This document shows, piece after piece, positions 9,127-12,840 of a DNA stretch of 64,000 nucleotides (position 1 is the first letter of the stretch; every line of letters starts with the position of its first letter). Source of the DNA: Pseudomonadota bacterium (GTDB taxonomy: Archaea; Thermoplasmatota; SW-10-69-26; JACQPN01; JAJPHT01); the NCBI GenBank assembly GCA_021325135.1, contig JAJPHT010000013.1, forward strand, positions 1-64,000, written 5' to 3'. Both the position numbers and the translations under genes were made by a program. The notes beneath the pieces were generated by a model, which saw only the letters and a program-made list of their open reading frames with translations, made no database searches and had not been told where the DNA came from.

Positions 9127-9738
9127 GTGCCCCGGATCCCCATCTTCCCCCTGGACGTGGTGCTCTTCCCGGGGGAGCCGTTCGGGCTGCACGTCTTCGA
9201 GGAGCGCTACCTCCTCATGACCGAGGAGTGCCTCGCGGAGAACCTGCCCATCGGCGTCGTCCTCATCCGCCGCGAAGGCTCCGAGGGCCCGCGCTTCGGC
9301 GGCATCCCCGCGCCGGAAGCGCCCGAGGACGACCGCGTCGAGTTCGAGCCCGAGCAGGTGGGCACCGCGGCGCGCATCGTGAAGGCCGAGAAGGTGGGCG
9401 ACCGCTACCTCTTGGACACCGTGGGCACGCACCGCTTCCGCATCAAGCGCGTCTACTCCGAGAAGCCCTACCAGGAGGCGGACGTGGAGTGGCTCGCCGA
9501 GCCCGCGGGCGACATCGCCGCCGCGGCGCGCCTGGCCGGCGAGGTGCTGGAGAAGGTGGAGTCCGTGGGGGGCCAGGTGGACTGGGACAGCCCCTCGACC
9601 CACGACCCCATCGCCGTCTCCCACGTCGTCGCCTCGCGCCTCCCCTTCGACCTCCTCACCAAGCAACGCCTCTTGGAGGCCGAGGACGCGGAGCGCCGCC
9701 TGGAGGCGGAGTCGGAGATGCTGGACGTCGTGTTCTAA
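9127..9738 (+). CDS. Stand-alone Lon substrate-binding (N-terminal) domain protein
   Basis: IPIFPLDVVLFPG...LHVFEERY...VGT...G..RFRI; KQRLLE; no ATPase or protease domain. Confidence 0.85.
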   Translation: MPRIPIFPLDVVLFPGEPFGLHVFEERYLLMTEECLAENLPIGVVLIRREGSEGPRFGGIPAPEAPEDDRVEFEPEQVGTAARIVKAEKVGDRYLLDTVGTHRFRIKRVYSEKPYQEADVEWLAEPAGDIAAAARLAGEVLEKVESVGGQVDWDSPSTHDPIAVSHVVASRLPFDLLTKQRLLEAEDAERRLEAESEMLDVVF

Positions 9739-9739
9739 A

Positions 9740-9832
9740 GCGGGGGGTTCGGGGGGCGCAGCCCCCTGACGTTTTGATCGTCTGCTGGACTTGGACTTCA
9801 CGTCAGGGGGCTGCGCCCCCCGAACCCCCCGC
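9740..9832. repeat. Palindromic miniature element, copy 1
   Basis: Perfect 33-bp inverted repeat gcggggggttcggggggcgcagccccctgacgt with a 27-nt loop. Confidence 0.9.
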
Positions 9833-9885: not shown

Positions 9886-11064
9886 GTGGCCAAGACCGCG
9901 AACGTGGGCCGCGTCGTGGAGACGGGCGCCATCCTGGGCGTCCTCACGGTGGTCCTCGTCGCGACGGGCATCGCCATGTCGCCCACGGTGCTCGCCCAGC
10001 TGGGCCTCTTCGCGCAGCCGTGGGCCGCCAACGCGTTCTACGTCGTCCACATGACGTGCGCGGTGCTGCTGGTCGCCTTCCTCGCGTGGCACCTCTGGCC
10101 CCTCGCCTACGCGATCCTCAAGAAGGCGGGCCAGACCCTTGCCCAGCGCGTCTCCTCCTTCACGCTCCTGGCGCTCGTCCTCGTGGAAATCGTCACCGGC
10201 TACCAGCTCTGGAGCCACAGCTACGTGCTCCTTCCCAAGGAGTGGAACGTGGCGGTCCACCTGGCGACGACGGGCCTCCTTCTCGTCCCGCTTGGCATCC
10301 ACGCGGCGCGCGGCCTGGGCGTGTGGCGCACGCGCCGCGACGCGCGCAAGGCCGCGCTGGCCGCCGCGACGGCCGCGGGACAGGGCGAGAAGGCCATCGC
10401 GCAGCAGCGCGGGGTCTCGCGCCGCCTCTTCCTGCGCCTCTCGGCCTACGCCGCCGCGGGCCTCGCCCTCGCCGCCACCTTCGGCTCGGCCGCCAAGGGG
10501 CAGATCGGCGCGTGGCGGCTCAACTCCGTGGGCCCCATCCCCGGCCTCACCAAGGAAAGCTATCATCTTCGCGTCACGGGGCTCGTGAACAAGCCCATCA
10601 GCATCTCGTTCCCCGAGCTGCTGGCGATGAGCAGCGTGACCACCGACCTCGTGCACCACTGCGTCGAGGGGTGGACCTATGAGAACCAGTTCACGGGCGT
10701 GCCCCTCTCCGCGATCCTGGAGCGCGCGGGCGGCGTGAAGCCCGGCGCCTCCATGCTGATCTTCAAGAGCCCCGAGGTGTCGCGCCAGTGGTTCGCGTGG
10801 GGCCAGCAGTACACCAGCAGCTTCCCGCTGAAGCCCGGCGTCGCGGAGAGCGCGCTCGTCGTCTACGCTGTCGCGGGCAAGGACCTGCCCCCCGAGCACG
10901 GCTTCCCCGTGCGCCTCATGACGCCGCGCAAGTGGGGCTACAAGGCGTGCAAGTGGCTCACCGAGATCGAGGTGAGCGCCGACGGGAGCTACCGCGGCTA
11001 CTGGGAGCGCGAAGGCTACAACGGCGACGGCGACTTCCCGGGGCCCATCTGGGAAGGGCAGTAA
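9886..11064 (+). CDS. Membrane-bound molybdopterin oxidoreductase (sulfite oxidase/MsrP/YuiH family) with N-terminal cytochrome b-like TM domain
   Basis: HHCVEGW Mo-ligand Cys, HGFPVRL, WGYKACKW, GYWE; four TM His; internal SRRLFL Tat-like motif. Confidence 0.85.
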   Translation: MAKTANVGRVVETGAILGVLTVVLVATGIAMSPTVLAQLGLFAQPWAANAFYVVHMTCAVLLVAFLAWHLWPLAYAILKKAGQTLAQRVSSFTLLALVLVEIVTGYQLWSHSYVLLPKEWNVAVHLATTGLLLVPLGIHAARGLGVWRTRRDARKAALAAATAAGQGEKAIAQQRGVSRRLFLRLSAYAAAGLALAATFGSAAKGQIGAWRLNSVGPIPGLTKESYHLRVTGLVNKPISISFPELLAMSSVTTDLVHHCVEGWTYENQFTGVPLSAILERAGGVKPGASMLIFKSPEVSRQWFAWGQQYTSSFPLKPGVAESALVVYAVAGKDLPPEHGFPVRLMTPRKWGYKACKWLTEIEVSADGSYRGYWEREGYNGDGDFPGPIWEGQ

Positions 11065-11065
11065 A

Positions 11066-11208
11066 GCGGGGGGTTCGGGGGAGTCGTTGGGCGGCGCCGC
11101 AGCGCCGCCAAAATGGGGGGTTTCAGGGGGGCTCGCCCCCCTGACGTCTCGGTCGTCTGCTGGAACGGGACTTCACTTCAGGGGGCTGCGCCCCCCGGAA
11201 CCCCCCGC
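11066..11208. repeat. Palindromic miniature element, copy 2 (with internal insertion)
   Basis: Same termini and similar loop (tcgtctgctgga...ggacttc) as 9740-9832. Confidence 0.85.
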
Positions 11209-11702: not shown

Positions 11703-11749
11703 CATGTCGACCGAAATCTACATGATTCATGTTGACGTACATCGACATG
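11703..11749. promoter_or_regulatory. Two tandem palindromic ArsR-type operators
   Basis: catgtcga-N6-tctacatg (11703-11724) and catgttga-N6-tcgacatg (11728-11749); the second overlaps the arsR start codon. Confidence 0.7.
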
Positions 11750-12112
11750 ATGCCTCGGAAGGTCGCGCCCGCCCTCGCGCTGCGGCTGGAGACGCTTACT
11801 GGCGAGGACGGCGCGTGCTGCGCGGTGGACCTCCAGGCCGAGGCGCGCTCCGTGCGCGCGGGCCCCCGCATGGCGCAGGCGCTCGCCCGCGCGAAGGCCA
11901 TGGCGGACGAGAGCCGCCTCCTCGTCCTTGCGCTCCTGAAGCGCCGCGGCGAGATGTGCGCGTGCGAGGCGCAGGCCGCGCTGGGCGTCAGCCACGCCAC
12001 CGTGAGCCACCACATGGGCGTGCTCGTGGAGGCTGGCCTCGTCGAGGCCCAGCGGCGCGGCAAGTGGATGCGCTATCGACTCTCCGAAGGAACGAGGGAG
12101 ATTGTCCCGTGA
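11747..12112 (+). CDS. ArsR/SmtB family metalloregulator
   Basis: KAMADESRL, EMCACE (ELCVCD-like metal box), SHATVSHHM, GKW..Y wing; extra N-terminal CC. Confidence 0.9.
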   Translation: MMPRKVAPALALRLETLTGEDGACCAVDLQAEARSVRAGPRMAQALARAKAMADESRLLVLALLKRRGEMCACEAQAALGVSHATVSHHMGVLVEAGLVEAQRRGKWMRYRLSEGTREIVP

Positions 12113-12125
12113 CCGCGGGGAGGGG

Positions 12126-12194
12126 GTGAGGCCCATTCTGAACGATCCCGGATGCTGCGACCCCGGCTGCTGCGGCGGCGGAGGCTGCTGCTAG
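12126..12194 (+). CDS. Cys-rich metal(loid)-binding micropeptide (about 22 aa)
   Basis: MRPILNDPGCCDPGCCGGGGCC*; purine-rich RBS ggggagggggtga; the start may instead be ATT 12135 or CTG 12138. Confidence 0.65.
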   Translation: MRPILNDPGCCDPGCCGGGGCC

Positions 12195-12514
12195 CTTCTC
12201 AGGAGCCCCGCGAGCGCGGCGATGGCGAAGCAGAGCCCGGCCACCACCAGGGGCCGCAGGACGACGCGCATCTCGCGCTCGGGGGGCAGCCCGAAGAAGG
12301 GCCCCTCCGCCCGGAGCGGCAGCCCGAAGAGGGACCGCTCCAGGGCGCGGGCCGGACGCAGGAGGAGCGCCGCGGCCACGAGCAGGAGGGCCAGGGACGC
12401 GGCGACGAGGAGGAAGCCCTGCGTCGCGGCGAAGACGTCGCGCGGAAGGCGCGTGAGGAGCCACGCGATGGCGGCCGCGCCCGCCGCGACGGCGACGACG
12501 CGCGCGGGCCTCAT
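12191..12514 (-). CDS. Small membrane protein
   Basis: Three hydrophobic segments; ATGA overlap with the upstream gene. Confidence 0.6.
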   Translation of the reverse strand: MRPARVVAVAAGAAAIAWLLTRLPRDVFAATQGFLLVAASLALLLVAAALLLRPARALERSLFGLPLRAEGPFFGLPPEREMRVVLRPLVVAGLCFAIAALAGLLRS

Positions 12515-12840
12515 GCGGCCGCGCTCCGGCGGCGCTCCAGCAGCACGCCCAAGGCGAGCAGGGCGCCCACGACGAAGCCCGCGCTGAGGGCGAGGTTGAG
12601 CGCGACGCCGCCGTGCATGGAGAGCAGCGCGCCCGCCAGGAGGACGCCGTAGAGCGCCGTGCCCACCGCGCCGAAGAGGGGGAACCACCAGAGCATCGCG
12701 GCGCCGAAGACCCAGACGGAGCTGAAGAGGACGAGAAGGGCGGCGGGGATGCCCCAGCCGGCGAGCTTCACCGCCACGAGCGCCGCGGCCATGAGGAGAC
12801 ACCAGAGGGCCGCGAAGGCGCGCAGCGGGGTGCGAGGCAT
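12511..12840 (-). CDS. Small 4-TM membrane protein
   Basis: 109 aa, highly hydrophobic. Confidence 0.65.
   Translation of the reverse strand: MPRTPLRAFAALWCLLMAAALVAVKLAGWGIPAALLVLFSSVWVFGAAMLWWFPLFGAVGTALYGVLLAGALLSMHGGVALNLALSAGFVVGALLALGVLLERRRSAAA

Follow-up and report, generated by a model that had tools for sequence, protein, structure and literature searches.

In a soil archaeon of the Thermoplasmata, an arsR gene preceded by two tandem palindromes is followed 13 nt past its stop codon (counting from GTG 12126) by an unannotated micro-ORF whose short product carries three pairs of adjacent cysteines. We propose, with a probability of roughly 0.55, that this micro-ORF is translated into a putative free-standing arsenite-binding peptide whose synthesis is controlled by ArsR. 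The co-transcription of the peptide with arsR, its translation, its binding of As(III) and its physiological role are features that we infer from sequence comparison. The comparison covers the operator, the sensor, the fate of the micro-ORF in related Thermoplasmata and the enzymes that occupy the same position in other genomes.

The unit lies within the window, the 64,000-nucleotide stretch of DNA analysed here, in a region of about 72% GC content (Table 1). An earlier sequence-only reading had described it as a minimal metalloid resistance unit, and the palindromes, ArsR and the micro-ORF were all confirmed, position for position. That reading was also right that no pump or reductase gene is present 3' of arsR and that the next gene is convergent; this gene, encoding a 107-aa membrane protein, marks the end of the arsR unit, and a single CTAG serves both its stop codon and the TAG of the micro-ORF. 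Its 109-aa upstream partner is outside the ars unit. The only identical ArsR protein found elsewhere is encoded on one 1.1-kb Logan contig, where an independent gene call recovers arsR and the 107-aa gene and leaves the 78-nt gap between them empty, in keeping with the claim that the micro-ORF is missing from the gene track.

Farther upstream in the window, a gene at 9886-11064 (+) encodes a 392-aa protein that combines an N-terminal cytochrome-b-like membrane part (weak DUF4405 and Ni_hydr_CYTB matches) with a molybdopterin domain of the sulfite-oxidase/MsrP type (Oxidored_molyb, 117 bits). This molybdopterin oxidoreductase gene has on both of its sides a GC-rich palindromic repeat of about 94 nt (9737-9832 and 11112-11205, 81% identity between copies). 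The arms of the repeat are 33 nt long and, in the first copy, show 100% complementarity. Its left end recurs at 11062-11081 as an exact 20-nt copy. The repeat looks like a MITE or a member of an intergenic hairpin repeat family.

Table 1. Features of the arsR unit, numbered along the window, and micro-ORFs that follow arsR in relatives
Feature	Position	Strand	Length	Remarks
Putative operator palindrome 1	11703-11724		22 bp	CATGTNGA-N6-TCNACATG type, imperfect
Putative operator palindrome 2	11728-11749		22 bp	CATGTNGA-N6-TCNACATG type, imperfect; ends in ATG 11747
arsR, ArsR/SmtB metalloregulator	11747-12112	+	121 aa	Pfam and NCBIfam profiles; conserved Cys
Purine-rich Shine-Dalgarno-like run	12117-12129	+		GGGGAGGGGGTGA, contains GGTGA; sequence reading
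Cys-pair micro-ORF	12126-12194	+	22 codons from GTG 12126	stop TAG 12192-12194
Micro-ORF core supported by homology	12138-12191 (with stop, 12138-12194)	+		maximal extent from TTG 12102
Convergent membrane protein gene	12191-12514	-	107 aa	no Pfam match
Membrane protein gene	12511-12840	-	109 aa	upstream partner of the 107-aa gene, 4-nt overlap
Micro-ORF in G001 (= L050), same genus			20 codons	ATG overlaps arsR TGA
Micro-ORF in L100, metagenome locus			24 codons	same Leu-Asn-Asp beginning, same ending; perfect GGAGGTGATC in front
Micro-ORF in G004 (= L018 = L098), same genus			38 codons	three CC pairs, CC-stop ending
Micro-ORF in G009 (= L004), another family			16 codons	canonical Shine-Dalgarno sequence and ATG; 9 bases 5' of GNAT gene
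Micro-ORF in L118			longer ORF	ends CC-x3-CC-stop; TGATG overlap with GNAT start

ArsR scores above the cut-offs of both Pfam HTH_5 (PF01022; 45.4 bits, cut-off 22) and NCBIfam HTH_metalloreg (NF033788; 78.3 bits, cut-off 55), which places it among the winged helix-turn-helix metalloregulators of the ArsR/SmtB family. The EMCACE-type box and the additional CC that had been noted in it correspond to a CxC box and an N-terminal CC; in an alignment of ten orthologues (A1), the CxC of helix 3 is invariant (10/10) and every sequence possesses an N-terminal Cys or CC. Gene callers choose the upstream ATG 11729 as the arsR start. Because in four orthologues a stop codon interrupts the frame between the positions that correspond to ATG 11729 and ATG 11747, the start is most likely ATG 11747, and the apparent codons that begin at 11729 are operator DNA. 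The best matches to ArsR come from Thermoplasmata and Thermoplasmatota MAGs from soil and peat. We gathered about 170 arsR loci (10 from relatives by whole-genome search, 80 from species-representative genomes and 80 from metagenome contigs), which contain 148 unique ArsR sequences. Since orthologues precede arsM, arsC, arsD and genes for ArsN2-like GNAT proteins, the window's ArsR is a predicted arsenic regulator.

The second palindrome lies over the arsR start, as had been claimed, and ends in its ATG. Given that ATG 11747 is the likely true start, the arsR message would be leaderless, and the overlap implies that the putative repressor binds over the start site of this transcript. At the junction of both palindromes is an AT-rich stretch, about 25-30 nt 5' of the arsR ATG, where an archaeal TATA box would be expected. 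When the palindrome consensus is allowed up to two mismatches, the whole 3.77-Mb assembly contains it only at 11703-11724 and 11728-11749, and the description of the unit as minimal holds in this respect as well. A looser scan of the same genome, with three mismatches, yields 74 scattered single matches, none of them tandem and none near the weak ArsB-like, LMW-PTP or ArsA-like loci. Of 139 unique regions upstream of orthologous Thermoplasmata arsR genes, 138 carry the tandem operator, and in 106 the two palindromes are 25-26 bp apart; the background rate is 3 matches in 488,639 positions. Both the uniqueness of the palindromes in the genome and their conservation upstream of arsR point to a role as operators. 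Because the genome holds no other tandem operators, ArsR would, on this evidence, control its own transcript and nothing further in the genome, and the unit is probably autoregulated.

The frame of the micro-ORF is open from 12006, for 62 codons that lie mostly across arsR. The peptide would contain 6 Cys in 18-22 residues and no aromatics, with all three CC pairs inside its last 13 residues. Such a composition is rare in this genome: three CC pairs within 16 residues occur 6 times in its six frames, that is, in about 7.5 million codon positions. Another of these stretches is found on contig C33, at about 119,600 (-), in a membrane protein; about 60 residues of this protein form an internal loop composed nearly entirely of Cys, Gly, Pro, Asp and Ser, with several CC and CxC runs.

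The start codon of the micro-ORF is ambiguous among TTG 12102 (30 aa), GTG 12126 (22 aa), ATT 12135 and CTG 12138; the frame offers no ATG. The strong ribosome binding site attributed to it is half right, as the purine-rich run GGGGAGGGGGTGA is indeed present and yet abuts GTG 12126 too closely. Across the window's genome, GGTGA is most frequent at 11 nt 5' of long-ORF starts; by this spacing ATT 12135 or CTG 12138, neither of them a canonical start, would be better placed than GTG. A structured RNA element was rejected as the explanation of this region, since 12105-12215 gives no structure signal and folds no better than its shuffled controls (z = +0.58). An exhaustive phmmer search with the 30-aa frame against 1.84 billion predicted proteins returned no match, a result that is expected for an uncalled, low-complexity micro-ORF and is no measure of rarity. 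As a DNA pattern, the CC-GGGG-CC ending was found in the window only, among 21 genomes of the class; the pattern is too strict, because relatives vary there.

The proposal depends on a CC-rich ORF being kept after orthologous arsR genes, and such ORFs were found in G001, G004, G009, L100 and L118, so that, with the window (G000), CC micro-ORFs directly follow arsR in six lineages. Those of the relatives have 16-38 codons, one possibly 55. Five of the six stand-alone micro-ORFs, the window's included, end in CC-stop and the sixth ends one residue past a CC. GGAGGTGA-like motifs are present 5' of the micro-ORF in G009, G004 and L100, and a weaker one in G001. The micro-ORF of G001 is identical to the window's core at 14 of 18 alignable residues, among them both inner CC pairs and the Gly4 spacer. 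Over these 18 codons the two share 78% of their amino acids and 83% of their nucleotides, and the two nucleotide differences at conserved residues are both synonymous; the corresponding values for arsR are 53% and 65%. This measure of conservation is a comparison of identities, 18 alignable codons being too few for dN/dS.

The genes that flank the unit are unrelated among G000, G001, G004 and L100, and a comparison of flanks across G000, G001, G004 and the other loci showed no synteny. Since the flanks differ from locus to locus, the conserved unit is arsR with the micro-ORF. A convergent gene comes next, within 0-130 nt, in G000, G001 and L100, and in L100 a CTAG is again shared by the overlapping stops. 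LMW-PTP arsC is located 400 nt beyond the micro-ORF of G004. In G001, a class-I methyltransferase (L050:3614-4225; 31 bits on the ArsM model) is encoded 700 nt from the arsR/micro-ORF unit, and its C-terminal end is a short Cys cluster containing a CC. No CC micro-ORF follows arsR in the arsR-permease units of L010 and L011. We provisionally group as one class those ORFs of fewer than 60 codons that lie directly after an arsR with the tandem palindrome operator, contain at least two CC pairs, have a Shine-Dalgarno-like motif upstream and end at a CC or one residue past it. The window, L050 (G001), L100, L018 (G004), L004 (G009) and L118 belong to this class, which was defined post hoc and is descriptive; with six lineages and a sequence of low complexity, no meaningful E-value can be given for homology.

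The sole start options in L100 are a CTG after a perfect Shine-Dalgarno sequence and a GTG 45 nt upstream, inside arsR. At L100:1160-1250, the perfect GGAGGTGATC is separated by 3 nt from this CTG, which overlaps the arsR TGA (CTGA); at the matching distance are an ACG in G004 and ATT/CTG in the window (12117-12140). The starts of L100, G004 and the window suggest that near-cognate initiation may occur in these archaea.

A different kind of CC-rich protein was noted in three other Thermoplasmata genomes, where a protein of 91-93 aa is encoded right after arsR (L054:2892-3170, L073:2902-3174 and L075:2888-3160) and is followed in each by an M28 peptidase gene. These proteins share a basic N-terminus, a GGF-x-(D/E) motif and five Gly-flanked CC repeats. 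They match no Pfam or NCBIfam family, and a word-indexed protein search with the 91-aa protein of L073 returned no match, not even the protein itself.

In most relatives the position after arsR is occupied by an enzyme. Immediately 3' of arsR, about 120 loci have arsM (one such ArsM reaches 292 bits on NF008823, against a cut-off of 263), about 12 have LMW-PTP-type arsC, several an ArsN2-like GNAT gene (its best NCBIfam matches include ArsN2, at 38 bits, below the cut-off), 2 a permease gene with a CSC motif and 1 arsD. In relatives, these neighbouring enzymes begin with a stretch rich in Gly, Ser and Asp that carries the same CC-x-CC motif as the micro-ORF, and at least two CC pairs are present in 91 of the 104 unique ArsM N-termini of these loci. 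At L067:512-1294 a true ArsD (120.7 bits) bears a 60-residue N-terminal extension with two CC pairs; this protein also has a C-terminal AhpD-like part and a terminal CC. At L020:2531-3697 (= G008) a single 389-aa protein consists of the CC extension, GNAT and ArsM. A polypeptide at G006:C73 likewise joins a CC-pair extension, an ArsN2-like GNAT and ArsM, and such polypeptides have 389-398 aa. The micro-ORF thus represents the free-standing state of a module that elsewhere is the N-terminus of a protein. In a maximum-likelihood tree of 148 ArsR sequences (128 columns), the window's ArsR belongs to a 13-row clade (SH-aLRT 96) that contains all the micro-ORF loci. It also takes in the CC-GNAT-ArsM fusion, the loci with split CC+GNAT and several that have GNAT only; plain arsR-arsM loci are absent from it. 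The tree, in which this clade has no internal resolution, allows a single origin of the free-standing form.

Metallothioneins are small proteins with at least about 25-30% Cys and no aromatics that hold several metal ions in thiolate clusters, and As(III) is bound by vicinal and triple thiols, as in ArsD, ArsR and ArsM. The nearest precedents for the predicted peptide are thiol-rich polypeptides that bind metals under ArsR/SmtB control, and the arsenite sites that ArsD and ArsM build from vicinal Cys. Its closest known regulatory logic would be that of SmtB-SmtA, an ArsR-family repressor paired with a metallothionein. In SmtB-SmtA and BxmR-BmtA of cyanobacteria, as proposed here, an autoregulated ArsR/SmtB-family sensor with palindromic operators derepresses the neighbouring gene of a small Cys-rich polypeptide that sequesters metal. 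SmtA, however, is a 56-residue protein whose fold resembles a zinc finger (Pfam Metallothio_Pro); it binds Zn and Cd and is divergently transcribed, whereas the micro-ORF is a co-directional second cistron in an archaeal, arsenic-related context and would encode 18-22 residues with vicinal CC pairs and no Pfam match. As for the suggested likeness to metallothioneins and phytochelatins, the predicted peptide agrees with metallothioneins in composition, being small, Cys-rich and free of aromatics, and it belongs to no metallothionein family by sequence. Searched against Pfam and NCBIfam at E up to 0.1, the 30-aa frame gave no match, to metallothionein models or to others, and neither did the micro-ORFs of the relatives. 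As phytochelatins are enzymatically made, non-ribosomal (gamma-Glu-Cys)n-Gly peptides, the likeness to them is functional only; the micro-ORF peptide would be ribosomally encoded.

ArsD resembles the predicted peptide in its use of vicinal Cys pairs for As(III) (Cys12-Cys13-Cys18 and C-terminal CC pairs) and in its occurrence in ars operons under ArsR, and in L067 the CC module is fused to a true ArsD. ArsD, however, has a thioredoxin fold, a length of about 120 aa and a docking partner in the ArsA ATPase. The micro-ORF contains no domain of fold size and is far too short for a thioredoxin-like domain of about 100-120 aa; it does not match the NCBIfam ArsD model (NF033727), and neither ArsA nor a pump is linked to it. 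The likeness to the N-terminus of ArsM from these related archaea extends to the CC-x(4-10)-CC motif, its Gly/Ser/Asp-rich context, the slot after arsR and the placement of the Shine-Dalgarno sequence. The micro-ORF differs in ending at the third CC, with no SAM-dependent methyltransferase domain (NF008823) in it or after it, and the window's ArsR clade carries GNAT(-ArsM) in this slot rather than plain ArsM. Our full-text literature searches returned no description of such peptides in ars operons.

These comparisons suggest the following mechanism. ArsR dimers would bind the two tandem palindromes over the promoter and the start of their own leaderless transcript. Arsenite would then bind the CxC box together with the N-terminal Cys, a site assigned because of the established chemistry of ArsR/CadC proteins and the conservation of these cysteines, and would release ArsR from the operator. 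The derepressed transcript would yield ArsR and, from the second cistron, a peptide of 18-22 residues with three Cys-Cys pairs, whose translation would start from the Shine-Dalgarno-like run. This peptide would be the free-standing form of the CC-x-CC arsenite-binding module found at the N-termini of ArsM, ArsD and GNAT-ArsM in relatives. By thiol chemistry, its six thiols could hold up to two As(III) per peptide. It may act as an inducible thiol buffer or carrier and would be the sole output of the sensor in a genus where no methyltransferase was found.

Several points count against this reading. The best-spaced starts are the near-cognate codons ATT and CTG; the micro-ORF has been found in only six lineages and is of low complexity; to sequester a metalloid stoichiometrically with a ribosomally made peptide is expensive, and the unit has no dedicated exporter linked to it. 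The unit is dispensable, because two congeners of the window's genome lack this arsR: of the five genomes of the genus, three keep arsR and the micro-ORF, and the other two (99% and 88% complete) contain no orthologue of the window's arsR.

A further objection is that the micro-ORF may plausibly have begun as a stump, the 5' end left behind by a deleted CC-GNAT-arsM gene. This origin has to be weighed because neither ArsM nor GNAT was found in the genus: its five genomes (86-99% complete) contain no credible ArsM (best score 88 bits against a cut-off of 263; 76 bits on NF008823 in the window's own genome) and no ArsN2-like GNAT. In sister genera of the same family, ArsM is fused to GNAT or follows it, and the GNAT-ArsM is fused to the CC module or lies just downstream of it, in exactly the same slot. 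The micro-ORF may well have arisen as a remnant when the enzyme part was lost. It is a further step, the chief rival to our reading and in our judgement an unlikely one, to regard it as functionless today, a slowly decaying leftover of the 5' CC extension of a gene deleted in the genus ancestor, with ArsR and its operator an orphan regulator that is being lost. The absence of the window's arsR from two of the five congeners and the poor start codon of the micro-ORF would agree with such decay. However, the frame, the three CC pairs, the Shine-Dalgarno-like motif and the CC-stop ending have persisted while ArsR diverged to 53-64% identity, and conservation of the micro-ORF exceeds that of ArsR itself. 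All ligand cysteines are kept in ArsR, the tandem operator is perfect and the unit is found in differing genomic contexts, all of which speaks against a stump.

The Cys codons could also act in cis, by ribosome stalling, triggered by scarce Cys-tRNA or by As(III) on the nascent chain, that adjusts either how a downstream gene is expressed or how stable the arsR message is; the free peptide would then have no action. Mycobacterial polycysteine short ORFs are such elements: they are unannotated, contain consecutive Cys codons, are kept across species and act as cysteine-responsive attenuators (bioRxiv 10.1101/834739). They are, however, leaderless first ORFs upstream of cysteine-metabolism operons (10.1101/834739), whereas the window's micro-ORF comes last on the transcript of an arsenic sensor and has no further gene after it. 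The upstream placement typical of attenuators is met with only in G009 and L118, where the micro-ORF is immediately 5' of the GNAT start or overlaps it; it is absent in the window, G001 and L100, which have no same-strand gene downstream. A cis-acting role is further disfavoured by the position of the micro-ORF as a second cistron and by the occurrence of the same module as a protein domain fused to enzymes, and we give it little weight.

Similarly improbable is a role as an accessory of the sensor, in which the peptide would hand As(III) to ArsR, or compete with it for As(III), and so set the threshold of induction rather than confer resistance. In favour of such a role, arsR and the micro-ORF are the sole genes behind the operator and are tightly coupled, by the 13-nt gap in the window and a stop/start overlap in G001. 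A sensor with no other output, however, has nothing to tune, and relatives attach the module to enzymes, not to ArsR. Finally, spurious ORFs are plentiful at 72% GC and this frame is open mostly across arsR, but a chance ORF or DNA-level element in the intergenic spacer is scarcely credible in view of the rarity of triple-CC stretches, the recurrence of the ORF after arsR in five other lineages with different DNA, the lack of an RNA fold signal, and the differing flanks and 53-64% ArsR identity that exclude assembly duplicates.

An ArsR-controlled, translated arsenite-binding peptide is thus the reading that we favour. If the peptide is made and binds arsenite, it would represent a genetically encoded thiol-buffer arm of arsenic defence beside efflux, reduction and methylation, and would do so in abundant soil and peat archaea that are active in arsenic cycling. 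Annotation pipelines would, in that case, miss the only effector gene of this regulon, which has fewer than 30 codons, and the CC-x-CC region at the N-termini of ArsM, ArsD and GNAT proteins would be a separable functional module. Together with its cognate sensor and operator, a six-thiol peptide of 18 residues would also offer a compact component for sensing or capturing arsenic. A broader generalization is more doubtful, and we offer it tentatively: ribosomal Cys-pair peptides of phytochelatin size may constitute a self-sufficient, ArsR-controlled archaeal arsenic defence that operates without pump, reductase or methyltransferase, some of them read from near-cognate starts (CTG, ATT, ACG) after a perfect Shine-Dalgarno sequence, and their module may be a portable arsenite-capture tag that has been fused to, or split from, ArsM, ArsD and ArsN2-like enzymes.
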